The notes: a model not told the origin generated them from the letters alone. A stretch of 64,000 nucleotides of DNA from Candidatus Giovannonibacteria bacterium RIFOXYD1_FULL_48_21 (GCA_001778985.1 MFIU01000004.1:3067-67066), one strand, 5' to 3'; positions 34,737 through 42,582 are shown, numbered from the stretch's first letter. A program made the numbers and translations.

Positions 34737-35291
34737 GGAGAAAGTTCATTAAGTCTAGTGGTATACTTCAGTGAGTATGCCAGACAAAAGAACTTATGCC
34801 GATCGTGCAAAGTACTTAAGCAAGTACGTATCAAAACGCCGAAAGAAGCTGAAACAGATGGTTGTAGCATATAAGGGTGGTAAGTGCGTGCTTTGCGGGT
34901 ATAGCAAGTACGAAGGCGCATTTGATCTTCATCATATTGATGAGTCAAAAAAAGAATTCGGCTTATCGACAAGAGGCCTGACAAGATCTTGGGAAAAGAC
35001 AAAACGAGAAGCCGATAAGTGCGTTTTAGTATGTGCTAATTGTCATCGCGAATTGCACGGTGGTATTACGCAGCTTTCCGCCGCAAGGCGGATTGAAAAA
35101 CGAGGTGAATTGCTGGAAACCTAAATCCTTTTGGACAAGGCAATCAGCAGCCAAGTCCCGCCATCGGCGGGAAAGGTTCAGAGACTATCTCGAAAGAGAG
35201 TAGTCCGACACAAAGTCGGACGAAGCGCCTCGCCCCTGCAAAATCAGGGTGATGATATAGTCCACCCCCATAAGAAATTTTGGGACAAGTG
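34737..35291 (+). mobile_element. group I intron with HNH homing endonuclease ORF
   Basis: Core segment CAGCAGCCAAGTCC...GTTCAGAGACTATCTCGAAAGAGAGTAGTCCGACACAAAGTCGGACG matches group I P6/P7/P3/P8 consensus (compare Tetrahymena GUUCACAGACUAAAUGUCGGUCGG). Confidence 0.75.
34777..35124 (+). CDS. HNH homing endonuclease (intron-encoded)
   Basis: CVLCGYSKYEGAFDLHHID...CANCHRELH, an HNH motif with flanking Zn-binding Cys pairs. Confidence 0.75.
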   Translation: MPDKRTYADRAKYLSKYVSKRRKKLKQMVVAYKGGKCVLCGYSKYEGAFDLHHIDESKKEFGLSTRGLTRSWEKTKREADKCVLVCANCHRELHGGITQLSAARRIEKRGELLET

Positions 35292-35350: not shown

Positions 35351-35560
35351 ATGTCAAAGCAAGAAGCGACAATCGGCGAGAATATAAAGAAATACCGAAA
35401 CAAGCTCGGCATTTCTCAAGATGTCCTCTCAAAAAGGGCAAACCTTGCTTTTCATACCATCGCCAAGATTGAAGCGGGAGCGACGCCGAACCCGACCATT
35501 GAAACTGTTAAGAAAATCACGGATGCGCTCGGCGTATCGCTTGATGATTTAATGAAATAA
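35351..35560 (+). CDS. XRE-family HTH regulator (candidate RM controller protein)
   Basis: IGENIKKYRNKLGISQDVLSKRANLAFHTIAKIEAG is a Cro/C1-type HTH. The stop is translationally coupled to the next gene. Confidence 0.7.
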   Translation: MSKQEATIGENIKKYRNKLGISQDVLSKRANLAFHTIAKIEAGATPNPTIETVKKITDALGVSLDDLMK

Positions 35561-35561
35561 T

Positions 35562-35894
35562 ATGTCCGAGAGCCAAAAGAAAACAATCAAAGATTTACCA
35601 GAGGACGAGCGGCCGCGCGAGAAATTATTAAAATACGGCGCTGATAAATTGAGCAACACGGAACTTCTCGCCATACTCTTGCGGACTGGCACAAAGGGGA
35701 AATCAGCGATTGATATGGCGGAGGAAATTTTGAAAAGCGCCGGCGGCACATTTAAAGGTTTGGCCGGAAAAGACACAGAAGATATTACCAAAATGCTGGG
35801 CCTAAAAAATGCTAAAGTTGCTACGGTCGCCGCTGCTTTAGAAATTTCGCGTCGTGTTTCCAAGCAGATATTAAAAGATAAAGGAATTATCTAA
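35562..35894 (+). CDS. RadC-like (UPF0758) N-terminal HhH domain only, no JAB/MPN domain
   Basis: DLPEDERPREKLLKYGADKLSNTELLAILLRTGTKGKSAIDMAEEIL matches the RadC N-terminal signature. The ORF ends at 110 aa. Confidence 0.55.
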   Translation: MSESQKKTIKDLPEDERPREKLLKYGADKLSNTELLAILLRTGTKGKSAIDMAEEILKSAGGTFKGLAGKDTEDITKMLGLKNAKVATVAAALEISRRVSKQILKDKGII

Positions 35895-35895
35895 T

Positions 35896-37890
35896 ATGCC
35901 AAAACTACCTGATCCATTTTCTACAAAACCGACCAAAGAGCAGATTCAGACAACGCGCGAGATTTTGGACGCTATTTTTAAAGACCCCCAAGTCAAATAC
36001 GGCTTGCGGGAGTTTTCGAAACTAAAAATAGAGGAAGCTATCACGATTTTTGAAAAAGAAAAAGACAAATTTTATATCCACTGCCTCAAACGCGATAAAG
36101 ATATTGCGGTTTATGACAAAAGCAAAAATACCGGCAAGCCGGAAGAAATTATCCGTCAGCTTTGGCTTGTCAGATTGATTAGAGATTATCGCTACCCCCC
36201 CGATAGAATTGATGTTGAGGTTGACGTACATTTCGGCACAGAAGTCCACAGAAAAGCCGCCGATATAATGATTTACCAGGACGATAAGGAAACGCCCTAC
36301 ATTGTTTTTGAATTAAAGAAGCCGAAAGTTGAAGACGGGATAGATCAGTTAAAAAGCTATCTAAACTCCAAAGGTTCGCCGATTGGTGTTTGGTCCAACG
36401 GAAACGAGCGGGTTATTCTTTATCGTCCCTATCCGAAAAAATTTGAAAACAACTTGCGGGCAATCCCTCGCGTTGACCAGACAATTGAGGATGTTCTGGA
36501 AGAACGGCTTACCTTGGAAAAATTGACCTCCGACTATGATTTGAGCGAGCGCATTAAAATTTTGGAGGAACTGGTGCTTGCTAATGCCGGAGTTGATGTC
36601 TTCCAGGAAGTTTTCAAACTCATTTACGCAAAACTTTATGATGAAAAAGAAGCGCGCTCGCGCCCGGACAAAGAGGTTTATTTCCGAATGTCCAAGGACC
36701 CGAAATTTACTTTTGACATTGTTAATCGGCTATTCAAGGAATCTGTTTTGGAGTGGCCGGGAATTTTTACTCCTCACGATGAACTTCAATTATCACCCGA
36801 ACATCTTGCCGTTTGCGTTTCAGAGTTGGAAGACATAAAACTCCTTGATTCAAGCTTGGAAATTATTGACACCGCTTTTGAATATCTTTTGCCGGAAGTG
36901 GCGAAAGGCAAAAAAGGACAATACTTTACGCCTCGCCATGTGATTGATATGGCGGTAAAAATGCTCAATCCGCGCGATAAAGAATACATTGTTGACCCAG
37001 CGGCAGGGTCGGGCGGCTTTCTTATCCACGCTATGCAGTGGGTTTGGAGCCATGACTTGAAAGAAACGCCGCACGAAAAGCAGGTTGACTATGCCCGCCG
37101 GTATCTTTTCGGCATTGATTTTGACGATAAGCCGGTAAAAATCTCCCGCGCCTTGATGCTTATTGCCGGAGACGGCCGCTCGCATATTTTCAAACTTAAT
37201 TCTCTTAATCCGAAAGAATGGCAAGGTTCTGACTCTGAAAAAGAAAATGCGAGAGCAGAACTTCGCAAACTACTTCTTAAAACCGGTGATTACGAAGCAG
37301 ACCGAAACAACGAGGAAAATTTCCGCAGTTTTGCTTTTGATGTTTTACTTACCAATCCGCCGTTTGCCGGAAAAATCAAAGAGCAAATGCTATTGCGAGA
37401 GTATGAACTAGCCAAAAACAAAAAAGGTAAAATTCCTAAACAAGTCGGCCGCGATCTTCTTTTCATTGAGCGGGCGCTTCAACTAATAAAGCCCGGCGGG
37501 CGTTTAGCAATCGTCCTCCCCCAAGGCAAGCTAAACAACACGAATACCGAATACATCCGCCAGTGGTTGTTAGGTAGGGCGCGAGTTTTAGCGGTTGTCG
37601 GATTGCATGGTAACACCTTCAAACCGCATACCGGCACTAAAACCTCTCTATTATTTTTGCAGAAATGGGGCGGCGAAGCCGGAAGGCCAGAAGACGATTA
37701 CCCAATTTTTATGGCAACTTCCAAAAACTCTGGAAAAGATAATTCCGGAGAATATGTCTATAAAAAAGATGCGAAAGGAAATTTTGTTTTGGACGAACGC
37801 GGCCGCCGAATTTTACATCACGACTTGGATGAAGTTGCCGAGACATTCGTCAAATTCGCCAAAGAACAAAAATTTAGTTTTTGGAAATAA
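35896..37890 (+). CDS. restriction-modification protein: HsdR_N-like PD-(D/E)xK nuclease domain fused to gamma-class N6-adenine DNA methyltransferase (HsdM / type IIB A-subunit-like)
   Basis: N-terminal ADIMIYQDDKETPYIVFELKKPKVEDGIDQLKSY (D...ELK pattern of HsdR_N). MTase motif I VDPAAGSGGFL and motif IV LLTNPPF. Confidence 0.75.
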   Translation: MPKLPDPFSTKPTKEQIQTTREILDAIFKDPQVKYGLREFSKLKIEEAITIFEKEKDKFYIHCLKRDKDIAVYDKSKNTGKPEEIIRQLWLVRLIRDYRYPPDRIDVEVDVHFGTEVHRKAADIMIYQDDKETPYIVFELKKPKVEDGIDQLKSYLNSKGSPIGVWSNGNERVILYRPYPKKFENNLRAIPRVDQTIEDVLEERLTLEKLTSDYDLSERIKILEELVLANAGVDVFQEVFKLIYAKLYDEKEARSRPDKEVYFRMSKDPKFTFDIVNRLFKESVLEWPGIFTPHDELQLSPEHLAVCVSELEDIKLLDSSLEIIDTAFEYLLPEVAKGKKGQYFTPRHVIDMAVKMLNPRDKEYIVDPAAGSGGFLIHAMQWVWSHDLKETPHEKQVDYARRYLFGIDFDDKPVKISRALMLIAGDGRSHIFKLNSLNPKEWQGSDSEKENARAELRKLLLKTGDYEADRNNEENFRSFAFDVLLTNPPFAGKIKEQMLLREYELAKNKKGKIPKQVGRDLLFIERALQLIKPGGRLAIVLPQGKLNNTNTEYIRQWLLGRARVLAVVGLHGNTFKPHTGTKTSLLFLQKWGGEAGRPEDDYPIFMATSKNSGKDNSGEYVYKKDAKGNFVLDERGRRILHHDLDEVAETFVKFAKEQKFSFWK

Positions 37891-37899
37891 ATTACTCTT

Positions 37900-38871
37900 A
37901 TGAATACTGAAGAATATAAAAAAATAGATTGGAACAAACTACTTCGTAAGGACTTGGGCGAGTATAGTTTGGAAGTGGCGAAGCCAAATCTCGACAGAAT
38001 AAAGTCGATATTTGACGAGATTTTGAATTATCCAAACCTCGATCAGCTATCTGATAATTTTAAAAATCAGATTCAATCACAACTTAATTCCTTGGTGCAA
38101 TTTGCGAATCAGATTGTAAATAACTTTCAAAATACGAGTGAGCGTCAAACTTGGATCAATAATATAAAAAATAAGGAGTTCGAAGTTTATCAAAATCTCT
38201 CAAATATCTATGGGTATATAAAGGATTTTGATCCGGCAAGAGATGAACGGCTGAAAGATGTTATTAAAAAGTCAGAGGAACGTATAAAAAAGTTAAATGA
38301 GGATTTAAGTAAAACAGAAGCTCTTTTGCAGCAGGCGCAGAAAAAGGCAGTTCAAAGCGAAGTAATGGAATATGGAAACTTCTTTGGAAATGAGGCGGTA
38401 AAAAACGAGAGAACGGCAAAAATAAACCGATGGCTAATGTTCGGAAGTGTTGCTTTAACTGCTGTGCTCTCTGTTATCTTTCTACAAAACATCAAATTTG
38501 TTTCATCAGAAGAAATGACATTTTTTGAAAATGTCCTACAAACTATAAATGCACAAAACATACTTATAAAGTTTGTTTTGCTCTCGCTGGGCGGTTTCTT
38601 GATTGCTCATTTTTCAAAAGTACATTCAACGGAGAAAAACTTGTATAACCTCAATATCCAGCGACAAAATGCGCTTAATTCTCATAAACAAATTCTTGAT
38701 TCAGTAGTTGCTACTGAAAGTGAAAATGAGAAAGAAGTTAGAAACGCGATTTTACTTGAACTTACTAAAGCAATTTTTGCTAACCATGAGACCGGTTACT
38801 TGAAGGGTTCTAAAGATAATCCTGGGCCAGCAAGCCAGATAGTAGAGATAACAAAGACTTTACCGAAGTAA
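37900..38871 (+). CDS. hypothetical coiled-coil protein with two TM helices, embedded between the M and S genes
   Basis: 323 aa. About 170-aa Asn/Gln/Lys-rich coiled-coil N-domain, helices WLMFGSVALTAVLSVIFL and ILIKFVLLSLGGFLIAHF, and a 90-aa C-tail. No family. Confidence 0.5.
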   Translation: MNTEEYKKIDWNKLLRKDLGEYSLEVAKPNLDRIKSIFDEILNYPNLDQLSDNFKNQIQSQLNSLVQFANQIVNNFQNTSERQTWINNIKNKEFEVYQNLSNIYGYIKDFDPARDERLKDVIKKSEERIKKLNEDLSKTEALLQQAQKKAVQSEVMEYGNFFGNEAVKNERTAKINRWLMFGSVALTAVLSVIFLQNIKFVSSEEMTFFENVLQTINAQNILIKFVLLSLGGFLIAHFSKVHSTEKNLYNLNIQRQNALNSHKQILDSVVATESENEKEVRNAILLELTKAIFANHETGYLKGSKDNPGPASQIVEITKTLPK

Positions 38872-38873
38872 TC

Positions 38874-40238
38874 ATGCAGTATTCAATAATCCAAAAATCA
38901 CGACTTGAAGGTGGCCTACGGCTAGACGCGGAATTTTACCATCCGGAAAAATTAGAGGCGATGGAAAAGTTATCTAAATTCGGCATTAGCACTATTGCCG
39001 AGAATTTTCGGAACGTAAAAGAAACTTTTAACCCCCTCCGACATAAGTTAGCTACCACCCCCGCTCGCGTTTTTGATTTGTCTGATGTGAGTTCTTTTCT
39101 ACTGGAAGCAGGAGCAAAAGTAGAAAAAGCCGATGAAGTCGGCTCTACAAAAAAGATTATTCGCCAAAATGATGTTTTGATTTCTCGCTTGAGGCCTTAT
39201 CTCAAGGAAGTTTCTTTTGTGGGGTTTAATGAGGTTCAAAAACTGGCTTCAACCGAGTTTGTGGTTTTACGAAAAAAGAAGGATTCAAAGTTTCCTCCGC
39301 AAGCCCTTTTTGCATTTTTAACAACAGACGAAGTTCAAAATATTTTATTCTGGAGTCAAGGAGGAACAGAACATCCTCGCTTTTCCGAAAATCTTTTGAT
39401 GGGCTTAAAATTGCCGAAAACTTCGGAAAAGATGGCAGAAAGTATCGTAGATGATGTTAACGGCACTTACAAAAATTATCTGATATCACAAAATCTTTAC
39501 TCTCAAGCCGAGGATTTGCTGTTGGAAGAATTAGGATTGAAAGATAAAGATTTTGAGATTAAGGACGATTTGGCTTATATCGTCAATCTTTCTGAAATAA
39601 AATCCAACCATCGCGCTGACGCCGAATACTTCCAGCCGAAGTACGAAAACATTATGTCTCTAATTCGCGCGAATGGTGGAACAATGCTTGGCGATTTAGC
39701 AACGATGAAAAAAGGCATTGAGCCGGGGAGTGAGGTATATCAAGATGAGGGCAAACTATTTATTCGTGTAAGCAGCTTGTCTAAAAATGGGCTTGAAGAC
39801 AAAGACCAAAAGTATTTAAGCGATGAATTGTATCAGAAGTTAAAGAAAAATTACGAGCCGAAAGTTGGCGAGATTTTACTAACCAAAGACGCAACGCCAG
39901 GCACCGCTTATGTAGTGAAAGAGCCGATTGAGGGGATTGTTTCGAGCGGCATTTTACGCTTGAAGTTAAAGAATGAAAAGGTGGAAAATGAATATCTGGC
40001 ATTGTGTCTTAATTCCGTAATCGGACAAACTCAAGCGGAGCGCGATGGTGGGGGTTCTATCATTACACACTGGAGACCGGAACAAATCAAAAATGTTTTA
40101 ATTCCGATTTTACCCAAACCCACCCAGCAGAAAATCGCCGACTTAGTCCAAAAATCCCACGAAGCCCGCTCAAAAGCAAAACAACTTTTAGAACAAGCCA
40201 AATATAAAGTTGAACAATTGATTGAATCTAAAAAATAA
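38874..40238 (+). CDS. hsdS: type I-like specificity subunit HsdS (two target-recognition domains)
   Basis: Internal duplication with conserved LDAEFYHPEKLEAMEKL and ADAEYFQPKYENIMSLI spacer motifs typical of HsdS. Confidence 0.75.
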   Translation: MQYSIIQKSRLEGGLRLDAEFYHPEKLEAMEKLSKFGISTIAENFRNVKETFNPLRHKLATTPARVFDLSDVSSFLLEAGAKVEKADEVGSTKKIIRQNDVLISRLRPYLKEVSFVGFNEVQKLASTEFVVLRKKKDSKFPPQALFAFLTTDEVQNILFWSQGGTEHPRFSENLLMGLKLPKTSEKMAESIVDDVNGTYKNYLISQNLYSQAEDLLLEELGLKDKDFEIKDDLAYIVNLSEIKSNHRADAEYFQPKYENIMSLIRANGGTMLGDLATMKKGIEPGSEVYQDEGKLFIRVSSLSKNGLEDKDQKYLSDELYQKLKKNYEPKVGEILLTKDATPGTAYVVKEPIEGIVSSGILRLKLKNEKVENEYLALCLNSVIGQTQAERDGGGSIITHWRPEQIKNVLIPILPKPTQQKIADLVQKSHEARSKAKQLLEQAKYKVEQLIESKK

Positions 40239-40258: not shown

Positions 40259-41179
40259 ATGGCCAACTTATATTGGAAAAAGGATAAAAAAATATTTGCT
40301 GCCACAGAAACTCCATTTAAAACAGAAGAGGAGCTTGAGCATTATCTTTTAGATACGCGAGGAATTCTTAGCGATATTTATATTTTAAATAGACAAGTGA
40401 GGGCGAGGGCGGTTTCTGGTATAGAAATTCCGGACATGGTTGGAGTGGATAGCGAAGGAACGATTGTGATTATTGAGAACAAAAATATTCCCGTTGATGA
40501 AAAAATTATTTCGCAAGTGCTTAATTATGCACTTTGGGCAGAAGCAAATCCAGATTCAATAAAGAATCTTTGGCTTGAAGCCGAACAAGAGGGCACAGAG
40601 CCCGAGTGGGACAACCTACAAATTCGCATTATTATTGTCGCGCCTGAAATAAAACAACACTTGGCAAAATTTATATCGAAAATAGGATACCCGATCGATT
40701 TATTAGAAATCAAAAAATTCAACATAGGTAAAGACGAATTTATAGTTCTTAATAAGATTGAGGCCAATGTTTTTACTGCAAAGCCGGTTCATGGAAAAAG
40801 GAGCTATGATATCGCTTACTACGCAAAAGGGCATAATAAAGAGAGTGTTAAAAAATTTGAACAAGTTGTAAATCGCGTTGAGAGTTTTATTCACAAAAAT
40901 GGATGGAAATTGGAAAAGAAATTTAATCAAGGATATATAGGTTTCAAATACGGCTTCCCATTGGTTTTTGGTATCCAATGGCTTGGAAGTAGGTCATTTG
41001 GTTTCTTTTTCAAAATGCCTAAATCAAAAATGAAGAAAATCATTGTCCCTGGCCTTGAGTTTAGAGGATATATTGATAGGTGGAGTCAAGTTGAATACAA
41101 AATTAACTCGCCCGATTTTGATATTAAAAAATTAACTCCCTTATTTTTGGCTTCCTACAAATACATAAGGGGGGGGTAA
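40259..41179 (+). CDS. PD-(D/E)xK nuclease-fold protein with uncharacterised C-terminal domain
   Basis: IPDMVGVDSEGTIVIIENKNIPVDEKIISQVLNYALW fits the D-x(n)-E-x-K restriction-endonuclease-like core. About 170-aa C-terminal domain unknown. Confidence 0.5.
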   Translation: MANLYWKKDKKIFAATETPFKTEEELEHYLLDTRGILSDIYILNRQVRARAVSGIEIPDMVGVDSEGTIVIIENKNIPVDEKIISQVLNYALWAEANPDSIKNLWLEAEQEGTEPEWDNLQIRIIIVAPEIKQHLAKFISKIGYPIDLLEIKKFNIGKDEFIVLNKIEANVFTAKPVHGKRSYDIAYYAKGHNKESVKKFEQVVNRVESFIHKNGWKLEKKFNQGYIGFKYGFPLVFGIQWLGSRSFGFFFKMPKSKMKKIIVPGLEFRGYIDRWSQVEYKINSPDFDIKKLTPLFLASYKYIRGG

Positions 41180-41234
41180 AAATTTGTGGCGCACCAGCTA
41201 ACGCTGGCACAAATTCCGTCGGCGCAAAAAGCGA

Positions 41235-41277
41235 GGGCGCGGCGGAAGGGGGGTGTGGGGGGAATTCCGCCGCGCCC
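41235..41277. repeat. perfect 13-bp GC-rich inverted repeat (GGGCGCGGCGGAA / TTCCGCCGCGCCC) with G-rich loop GGGGGGTGTGGGGGGAA
   Basis: Read directly from the sequence, just downstream of the island's last gene. Confidence 0.6.
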
Positions 41278-41501
41278 GAGCCGGAAGCGAAGCGTCAGAA
41301 ATCAGTGTCAGGATTTTCGCGAAAAAAAGTTCGGATTTCGTTCAGGGTGTGGAGCCAGTAGCAAACTTAAGTCATTTTCAGAAAAATTTTTGCGTGCGAC
41401 GCAAAGCGTCGCCCATTGTTTTGCGGGGATTTCTTCAACTTTTTTATTTCGTAAAGTCAGGTTCGAGCCGAATATTTTTTGGAGAACTATAAATAATTTT
41501 T

Positions 41502-41615
41502 ATGGACGAAGAAAAAGAACGGCAAAAAGAAATAAGAGAAAAGCTGGAAAGCGAGGGGCTTGATCCTGACGAGTTTGACGAGGACGAGCAAGAACAACTC
41601 GCCGATTTACTTTAA
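41502..41615 (+). CDS. acidic miniprotein (37 aa)
   Basis: MDEEKERQKEIREKLESEGLDPDEFDEDEQEQLADLL. TATAAAT-like -10 upstream. Stop lies 6 nt before the Zn-ribbon ORF. Confidence 0.35.
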   Translation: MDEEKERQKEIREKLESEGLDPDEFDEDEQEQLADLL

Positions 41616-41621
41616 TCATAT

Positions 41622-41795
41622 ATGGTCAAATTCACACAAAAAGACGACAAAGAACTATATCAATGTGAGGAGTGCGGTTTTCACTATGAATACCGCGAGT
41701 GGGCGGAAAAATGCGAAGCGTGGTGCCGGGAACATAAGAATTGCAATATTGAGATTACTGCTCATGCATTTGAATTATTCTATTTGGGTTATTAA
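41622..41795 (+). CDS. Zn-ribbon miniprotein (57 aa), paralog of 50103..50270
   Basis: MVKFTQKDDKELYQCEECGFHYEYREWAEKCEAWCREHKNCNIEITAHAFELFYLGY. Cys4-5 ribbon. About 65 percent identical to the second copy. Not in the ORF track. Confidence 0.55.
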   Translation: MVKFTQKDDKELYQCEECGFHYEYREWAEKCEAWCREHKNCNIEITAHAFELFYLGY

Positions 41796-41820
41796 TTAAA
41801 AAGAGCTAAAATATAAACAT

Positions 41821-42582
41821 ATGTTTGAACTCAAAAATAAAGTTGCGTTGGTCACCGGCGGGAGGCGCGGCATGGGGAGAACTCATGCTTTGGCTTTGGC
41901 CGGTCAGGGAGCAAAAGTTATTGTTACCGACATTGATGCCAAAGAATGTCTGCCGGTGGTTGAGGAAATAAAATCAAAAGGCGGCGATGCAGCCTGCTTC
42001 AAGATGGATGTTTCAAACGCAGAGGAGGTTAATCAAGTTTTTGACGAGGCCATTAAACAATTCGGTCGCTTGGATATTTTGGTAAATAACGCCGGCATTT
42101 ATTTCTCAAAGCCGGCCTCAGAACTTACTGAAGCGGACTGGGACAAGATGATTGATATTAACCTTAAGGGGCAGTTTCTGTGTGCCCAACGAGCCGCAAA
42201 AGAGATGACAAAGAACAAGTGGGGTCGGATTATTAACATTGCATCGGTTGCCTCCGGGCAGGTTGGTGTCGGCATTGCCGGCGGCGCGCACTATACCGCC
42301 TCAAAAGGAGGAATTATTGGGATGTCGGAAACTCTGGCGGTCGAGTGGGCCCCGCTCGGAATTAATGTAAATGTCGTAGCTCCCGGCGCGATTGATACTC
42401 CGATGGTGCAGGCGGCACAACTGCCAAAGGAAGCAATGGACGCCATGCTCTCCAGAGTTCCATTAAAAAGAATCGGCAGGCCGGAAGAAGTTTCTGCAAT
42501 GGTTGTCTTTCTCGCTTCAGAGGAAGCAAGTTATGTCACTGGTGCCACATTTTATGTGGACGGTGGCTGGTTGGCCGTATAA
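41821..42582 (+). CDS. SDR-family oxidoreductase (FabG-like)
   Basis: VALVTGGRRGMGRTHALAL glycine motif, NNAG, YTASKGG catalytic Tyr/Lys. Confidence 0.8.
   Translation: MFELKNKVALVTGGRRGMGRTHALALAGQGAKVIVTDIDAKECLPVVEEIKSKGGDAACFKMDVSNAEEVNQVFDEAIKQFGRLDILVNNAGIYFSKPASELTEADWDKMIDINLKGQFLCAQRAAKEMTKNKWGRIINIASVASGQVGVGIAGGAHYTASKGGIIGMSETLAVEWAPLGINVNVVAPGAIDTPMVQAAQLPKEAMDAMLSRVPLKRIGRPEEVSAMVVFLASEEASYVTGATFYVDGGWLAV

Follow-up and report, generated by a model that had tools for sequence, protein, structure and literature searches.

A 64,000-nucleotide stretch of the genome of Candidatus Giovannonibacteria bacterium RIFOXYD1_FULL_48_21 (GCA_001778985.1 MFIU01000004.1:3067-67066), hereafter the window, carries a restriction-modification (R-M) operon whose last gene is the subject of this analysis. 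This open reading frame (ORF), at 40259-41179 on the plus strand, runs from ATG to stop codon and encodes a protein of 306 amino acids (aa), hereafter the target. It closes a same-strand block made of a helix-turn-helix (HTH) regulator, a RadC_N ORF, a methyltransferase (MTase), an ORF of 323 aa, an HsdS-like specificity subunit, and the target itself, which starts after a gap of 20 nt from the stop codon of the HsdS-like gene (38874-40238). The block is a low-GC island, with a GC content of 0.37-0.43 versus ca. 0.48 in the flanks, and beyond it the first gene that can be assigned to a family begins at 41821. An earlier reading of this DNA, made from the sequence only, had presented the ORF as a stand-alone protein with a PD-(D/E)xK fold that terminates an R-M-like operon, acting as a second effector nuclease, as a type IV-like nuclease of modified DNA, or as a partner replacing HsdR. 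The ORF is indeed real and conserved, and it is the last same-strand gene after HsdS. We identified it as a full-length member of the PADLOC candidate defence family PDC-S18 (PDLC04944), with a NucS-type nuclease domain and a tail modelled as DUF5655-like, at a position taken by other nuclease or ATPase cassettes in close sister operons.

A NucS-type nuclease with a DUF5655-like tail

The match of the target to the PDC-S18 profile covers the whole protein (E-value 1.8e-105, 350.7 bits, residues 1-305 on profile positions 1-306 of 307); the PDC-S11 profile matches the nuclease half only (E 4.9e-12, residues 5-166). PDC families were defined by 'guilt-by-embedding', from genes located inside the loci of BREX, DISARM, or type I R-M systems (bioRxiv 10.1101/2024.01.29.577857). 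PDC-S18 is embedded in this sense: the target closes the operon of an MTase and a specificity subunit (hereafter the M-S pair), and homologues directly follow type I, type IIG, type III, and MAD2-like systems. The target does not differ from the rest of the family, a single-gene cassette in or beside R-M loci that PADLOC treats as a single-gene candidate. It is a further copy of a catalogued family, and what the analysis adds, besides the evidence for an accessory cassette and the two-slot hypervariable R-M operon family presented below, is the dissection into domains, of which we found no earlier description: the literature searched gave no domain analysis, mechanism, or phenotype of PDC-S18, the PDC families tested in published experiments are different ones, and the search for DUF5655 turned up one unrelated genome note.

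The PDC-S18-like family is small. When 5.8 billion proteins were searched by word index, 54 homologues emerged at E <= 1e-50, far above chance level, with 96% to 38% identity, nearly all of 304-313 aa, every recorded source name being 'hypothetical protein'. The exhaustive profile search, which covered 1.84 billion cluster representatives, gave 98 matches at E <= 1e-30, 334 at E <= 1e-10, and 2026 at E <= 1e-3. Among 185,579 species (one genome each), 147 matches were confirmed by tblastn, in Patescibacteria, Chloroflexota, Omnitrophota, Verrucomicrobiota, Planctomycetota, Acidobacteriota, Nitrospirota, Bacteroidota/Ignavibacteria, and Methanobacteriota/Nanoarchaeia. This rare and patchy distribution over bacterial and archaeal phyla is consistent with horizontal spread. 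Relatives of the target were found neither in phage and plasmid collections searched by tblastn nor in PHROGs, and a phage- or plasmid-borne origin is therefore unsupported.

The N-terminal ca. 170 residues of the target (residues 1-~169; 40259..40765, plus strand) are a PD-(D/E)xK domain of the NucS/EndoMS type in which every residue of the catalytic motif is invariant. First, the family profile matched the NucS of P. abyssi (2vld) among the structures of the Protein Data Bank (PDB) at E 3.8e-6, and the alignment pairs D59, E73, K75, Q86, and Y90 with NucS D160, E174, K176, Q187, and Y191, the residues described as catalytic in the NucS literature. Second, the AlphaFold2 model of the whole protein (mean pLDDT 86.7) has EndoMS (5gke) and NucS (2vld) as its best Foldseek matches in the PDB (E ~3e-4, probability 1.0). 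Third, an alignment of 37 sequences, reaching down to 36% identity with the target, leaves F20, E23, E27, D59, D64, E73, K75, Q86, Y90, A91, W93, W105, Y144, L148, and Y226 invariant. Fourth, Pfam NucS_C was matched in 17 of these 37 relatives (best E 1.5e-6). On the plus strand, the predicted catalytic Asp is D59 in an IPD motif (codon GAC, 40433..40435; 'GIVDVMG' in 2vld), the ExK motif is E73-N74-K75 (GAG AAC AAA, 40475..40483; 'LELK' in 2vld), and Q86-V-L-N-Y90 (40514..40528; 'QMKRY' in 2vld) is the QxxxY motif of NucS/RecB-type nucleases. The D...ExK motif, with a Glu upstream and QxxxY downstream, lies on an alpha-beta-beta-beta-alpha-beta core, the arrangement of PD-(D/E)xK nucleases of the NucS_C type. 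The fold proposed earlier is thus borne out and specified as NucS type, since both the model and the alignment place D, E, and K in a nuclease-like fold. The D...E-x-K core had been located in GVDSEGTIVIIENK (residues 62-75, read from the translation); the ExK is there, whereas the catalytic Asp is not, because D59 precedes this string and the D64 within it is a second invariant Asp, also conserved in NucS. Two other PDB matches were discarded, i.e., those of the single-sequence search to designed 'Pizza' propellers, which are spurious repeat matches, and a weak match of the profile search to a ThrRS editing domain, attributed to chance.

The target and the NucS/EndoMS mismatch endonucleases of Archaea and actinobacteria share the type of catalytic domain, with E...D...ExK...QxxxY aligned residue for residue. 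They differ in domain order, which is reversed in the target (nuclease first, accessory domain last), and in context, which is repair for NucS/EndoMS and defence islands for the target. We rejected orthology with NucS for two reasons: the NCBIfam equivalog (NF003270) matches the target at 7.5e-5 and 21.9 bits, far under its cut-off of 216, over residues 57-143 and profile positions 161-228 only; and the N-terminal domain of NucS for mismatch binding and dimerisation is missing, because the nuclease alignment begins at about residue 20-22 and is preceded only by a short conserved beta-hairpin (M-x-N-L-F/Y-W-K) that is part of the nuclease domain. These are also arguments against a housekeeping role in DNA repair, in which a NucS/EndoMS-like endonuclease of mismatched or branched DNA would merely be adjacent to the R-M operon. 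NucS and EndoMS being the nearest solved structures, and metabolic genes lying beside some homologues, are in its favour. We nevertheless regard this role as exceedingly unlikely, because the family is also rare and patchy, is enriched beside R-M genes, and swaps with defence cassettes, as detailed below.

The remainder of the protein had been described as an unrecognised domain of roughly 170 aa. It is shorter, ca. 125 aa (residues ~181-306; 40799..41176, plus strand), because the nuclease domain extends to about residue 168, and its modelled structure makes it recognisable as a DUF5655 or 'double-wing' fold, of the type of YjbR and of the C-terminal domain (CTD) of MotA, with marginal sequence similarity to DUF5655. 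Modelled alone, this C-domain reaches pLDDT 92.2 and pTM 0.85, and its predicted topology is helix / six-strand sheet / helix. Its Foldseek neighbours in the PDB include YjbR (2fki, TM 0.52, probability 0.96), YdhG/DUF1801 (2oc6, TM 0.52), the CTD of T4 MotA alone (1kaf) and in complex with dsDNA (5jlt; TM 0.47-0.52), and frataxins. The helix / antiparallel sheet / helix arrangement is common to the C-domain, YjbR/MmcQ, YdhG, and MotA, with TM ~0.5; MotA is a documented DNA binder, and YjbR is inferred to be one. Both YjbR and MotCF have been described as 'double-wing' DNA binders, and fusions of the nuclease-YjbR-EVE kind were reported (PMC7641849). Pfam DUF5655 (PF18899) has no match in the target itself even at E <= 10; it is weakly matched by 3 of the 37 full-length relatives (best 2.9e-5) and by 6 of 25 relatives of the C-domain (best 0.002), and the top match of the C-domain among the viral structures of BFVD is a protein annotated as DUF5655 (E 9.2e-4). 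A local match to NEQ068 (5oxx, E 0.14), a split-intein part of a DNA polymerase, is below significance and was taken as chance.

Most tellingly, the exhaustive profile search also gave proteins in which only the C-domain is matched (E 1e-23 to 1e-36) and which have other heads: GmrSD_N plus GmrSD_C (P0201, 709 aa), GIY-YIG (P0128, 282 aa), HSDR_N (P0147, 394 aa), and, by a weak match, a HipA/PI3K-like kinase (P0184, 404 aa). Joined to four different catalytic heads, three of which are nucleases, the C-domain has the behaviour of a domain for targeting or sensing, and is probably a module that binds DNA or acts as a sensor. The resolution of PDC-S18 into an intact NucS-type nuclease and a portable DUF5655-like module provides a hypothesis for a domain of unknown function that can be addressed by mutation.

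Two variable cassette slots in sister operons

Close relatives of the MTase of the window (56-100% identity) are encoded in 80 metagenome loci. Their operons share a frame in which an optional HTH regulator and an optional RadC_N ORF precede the MTase, followed by a variable cassette, HsdS, and another variable cassette. Among the 30 loci in which 400 bp or more are available beyond HsdS, the target is present in 6 (5 if L153 is set aside), and ca. 80% lack the gene. L153 is probably the locus of the window itself: the matched MTase segment and the target are identical in the two, and the ORFs that follow are of equal sizes. In the other loci, HsdS is sometimes followed by no same-strand ORF and in several cases only by a short ORF. 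Ten ORFs from the post-HsdS position were scanned for families, and the cassettes at this position include 1) PDC-S11, with NucS_C and DUF4268 (L096 and L097, scanned in L096 with E 3e-119); 2) PDC-S14-type proteins with GIY-YIG, DUF4357, and RAMA (L121 and L141); 3) a Cas4-like PDDEXK_1 nuclease (L130); 4) a GmrSD_N protein (L143); 5) an AAA_15/21 ATPase (L105); 6) a Trypsin_2 peptidase (L116); 7) a type II MTase (L146); and 8) short ORFs of 144 and 139 aa without family match (L099 and L123). Close sister operons thus differ in what they carry at the position of the target gene.

The slot between MTase and HsdS is equally variable. With MTases 90-95% identical, it contains an AAA_15/21 ATPase (593 aa), a Schlafen AlbA_2 protein with HATPase_c_4 (483-490 aa), a KAP NTPase (752 aa), a DUF3800 protein (266 aa), or other unknown ORFs. 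The 323-aa protein found there in the window is shared by L153 only, among the relatives L090-L168. HsdS varies as well: in L090, L094, L103, L107, and L151 the MTase is 90-95% and the target 94-97% identical to those of the window, and HsdS only 35-64%. Such low identity beside conserved neighbours would fit swapped DNA-recognition regions. This operon family is a natural experiment in 'embedding', in which MTases 90-95% identical are accompanied by different cassettes at two fixed slots. The set of two-slot operons could be a source for mining new defence genes and for asking how cassettes are exchanged.

The fast turnover of cassettes at the two slots, together with the discordant phylogenies of target and MTase and the presence of one homologue near an integrase (L004, in a locus without R-M genes), could also be the mark of a selfish or mobile-element nuclease. 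Such a homing-endonuclease-like protein would drive its own insertion 3' of R-M operons without defence benefit to the host. This we find very unlikely, given the lack of matches in phage and plasmid collections and in PHROGs, and given that the slot otherwise houses genes of classical defence and not of mobility.

The MTase upstream of the target (35896..37890, plus strand) is a fused nuclease-methyltransferase, with Pfam HSDR_N_2 (3.8e-21) and N6_Mtase (6.9e-39), and it matches the PADLOC model MTase_I (PDLC03034) at E 2.5e-192. Its nuclease domain, already noticed by the sequence-only reading as HsdR_N, keeps in the translation the motif AADIMIY...VFELKKP...QLKSY. Since D...ELK...QxxxY is intact, the M-S pair already looks like a complete nuclease-methyltransferase plus S system. 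The HsdS-like subunit (38874..40238, plus strand) is matched by Pfam Methylase_S (6.3e-13). In architecture the pair is BcgI-like, since these type IIB enzymes also combine a fused nuclease-methyltransferase with an S subunit of its own. Membership of the operon in MADS was rejected: the M-S pair matches NCBIfam MAD2 (312.6 bits) and MAD5 (122.3 bits) partially, below the cut-offs of 720 and 400, respectively, and no other scanned ORF of the block matches a MADS model, i.e., no other mad genes are present. MADS is an operon of eight genes, mad1-mad8 (bioRxiv 10.1101/2023.03.30.534895). On the 5' side of the MTase, the HTH regulator (35351-35560, plus strand; HTH_3 9.2e-15, PADLOC Control_protein 1.1e-9) is followed by a 110-aa ORF with RadC_N only (35562-35894, plus strand; UPF0758_N 1.8e-28) and no sign of the remainder of RadC; both recur at this position in many relatives. 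The 323-aa protein (37900..38871, plus strand) has a coiled coil and two hydrophobic segments, and searches that included scans of Pfam, NCBIfam, and PADLOC gave it no significant family.

Neighbourhoods of the homologues and a candidate role in defence

The homologues of the target are found in diverse contexts. They follow an HSDR_N_2-MTase and an S gene in L001 and L006, a complete type I R-M-S system and an AAA_15/21 ATPase in L003, and a type IIG-like enzyme of 1065 aa with an ORF of 398 aa in L008. In a census of 103 upstream neighbours from 64 loci, classed by Pfam and PADLOC families, the recurrent families include ResIII (6), N6_Mtase (5), Eco57I (5), mad2-like (4), N6_N4_Mtase / type III Mod (3), and HSDR_N (3). 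In at least 17 of the 67 loci that measure 8 kb or more, an R-M gene lies at most five genes away, for the most part as the immediate upstream neighbour on the same strand, a figure that is rough because some seeds were picked by size and position only. Identities to the window are discordant between target and MTase: they are respectively 81% and 25% in L001, and 38% and 50% in L006.

These data bear on the possibility that the target is a dedicated R subunit, a 306-aa nuclease that would dock on the M2S complex and supply or double cleavage in place of a motor-driven HsdR. It is not a type I HsdR itself, since it has no ResIII or helicase match in Pfam, NCBIfam, or PADLOC, and its 306 aa are without SF2 motor. 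A subunit of a different kind would fit the operonic position of the gene, only 20 nt from hsdS, and the order HSDR_N_2-MTase / S / target kept in L001 and L006 despite deep divergence. Yet the MTase carries its own intact PD-ExK motif, ca. 80% of the close relatives of the operon do without the gene and have unrelated cassettes in its slot, and the two identities vary in opposite directions. Elsewhere the gene comes after type III or IIG enzymes, or after type I systems that already have an HsdR, and PADLOC treats it as a single-gene candidate. We therefore judge the subunit improbable, and the proposal of a partner replacing HsdR is not sustained by a gene that occurs in 6 of 30 loci and whose homologues stand beside complete type I systems, beside type III or IIG systems, or beside no R-M genes.

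As the contexts of the homologues differ, the identities are discordant, and the post-HsdS slot is variable, the target looks like a passenger of the operon and not a partner. We favour, with some confidence, the explanation that it is an autonomous two-domain accessory defence nuclease, carried as an exchangeable cassette 3' of a complete R-M operon of which it is not a subunit; among the three roles proposed from the sequence, the second effector nuclease fits best. The C-domain would bind DNA and select the substrate, and the NucS-like domain would then cut the selected DNA in a metal-dependent manner, independently of the M-S pair. What the C-domain selects might be phage DNA whose modifications let it evade the co-transcribed R-M system, or DNA of aberrant structure. 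The cassette would then add to defence a second layer that works independently and is type IV-like in pairing a small nuclease with a reader domain, and its expression would be tied to that of the R-M operon and to the HTH regulator by co-transcription with M and S. A promoter scan, which was uninformative, found no separate strong promoter for the target.

An accessory nuclease linked to an R-M operon could also be a guard. It would be a latent toxic nuclease restrained by the R-M complex and freed by an anti-restriction protein of the phage, leading to abortive infection. The genomic logic would be that of PrrC in type I loci, cited as the archetype of embedded genes (bioRxiv 10.1101/2024.01.29.577857). 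Cassettes of the ATPase, OLD-like, and Schlafen-like sorts, which are characteristic of abortive systems, share the slot, and the fold of the C-domain has chaperone-like members that bind proteins. However, many homologues have no R-M neighbour to restrain them, and the associated R-M types (I, IIG, III), being structurally unrelated, speak against a single specific inhibitory contact. We thus consider a guard of this kind unlikely.

Under the favoured explanation, an accessory defence nuclease, a type IV-like role against modified or atypical DNA is plausible by analogy, since many slot-mates (PDC-S11, PDC-S14 with RAMA, and GmrSD) have the layout of a small nuclease with a reader-like tail and since the C-domain is fused to GmrSD. 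PDC-S11 has a related nuclease domain, an equal size, the same head-plus-tail layout, and the identical post-HsdS slot in L096 and L097; it differs by its tail, a DUF4268 domain to which the DUF5655-like tail of the target has no detectable match in sequence. Type IV enzymes (GmrSD/BrxU, McrB-N, MspJI-like) associate a small nuclease with a reader, and the target is laid out alike, its reader being putative. Its C-domain is fused to a complete GmrSD in P0201, and a GmrSD_N protein fills the slot in L143. YjbR has a distant structural neighbour in McrB-N, the reader of 5mC (PMC3424535). By sequence the target does not belong to the type IV families, and its nuclease is of the NucS type, not of the Mrr, HNH, or McrC type. 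Extending this analogy, the DUF5655-like C-domain may be a hitherto unrecognised reader of modified or foreign DNA, set on at least four nuclease heads (NucS-type, HSDR_N, GIY-YIG, and GmrSD), and PDC-S18 may be a new type IV-like family that R-M operons acquire as plug-ins; we advance this tentatively, as a doubtful possibility. If true, phages that overcome the R-M system by modifying their DNA would be caught by such plug-in cassettes.

A number of observations weigh against an autonomous defence nuclease with a DNA-reading tail. First, the Pfam scan of the target protein itself gave zero matches. Second, the C-domain resembles folds in the PDB at weak E-values, all above 0.001. Third, this fold also includes frataxin-like proteins and proteins resembling type III secretion chaperones, so that its ligand could be a protein or a small molecule. 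Fourth, ca. three-quarters of the loci with homologues show no R-M gene nearby, and the upstream families include housekeeping ones, such as rpiB (5), Nuo 30-kDa (3), and Mur ligase (2); the association with defence is therefore an enrichment and not a rule. Fifth, the HSDR_N_2-MTase, S, and target genes are found together at three widely separated levels of divergence (the window, L001, and L006), so that a functional interaction with such an R-M enzyme keeps some plausibility. Sixth, in full texts of the literature and in the supplements to the study that defined the PDC families (bioRxiv 10.1101/2024.01.29.577857) we found no experiment showing nuclease activity, DNA binding, or phage defence for PDC-S18.

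We also considered Shedu (SduA, DUF4263). The PADLOC models of Shedu do not match the target, SduA_C is weakly matched in 4 of 37 relatives (6.9e-4), and membership was rejected. In Shedu, the SduA_C nuclease is C-terminal, behind a sensor domain, which is the opposite of the order in the target, and its structure 8ps5 ranks low in Foldseek. In two loci (L059, 10001-12223, and L085, 166-2171), the PDC-S18 homologue is directly trailed by a second gene with a NucS_C domain and a different C-terminal region. The products of these second genes have 376 and 333 aa, respectively, and make with the homologues tandem paralogous pairs of the 'nuclease plus different tail' kind.

Edges of the block

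Just 5' of the R-M block, a plus-strand ORF of 117 aa (34771-35124) has a weak HNH-like CxxC...H...CxxCH pattern (Pfam HNH 0.0073) and overlaps an ORF on the opposite strand. On the 3' side of the target, ca. 640 bp (41180-41820) are apparently non-coding or poorly coding, and may be the boundary of the low-GC island. They contain a GC-rich stretch at 41190-41300 and a terminator-like hairpin at 41396-41412, the latter being the first terminator-like site past the stop codon (41179) in a terminator scan that was otherwise uninformative.

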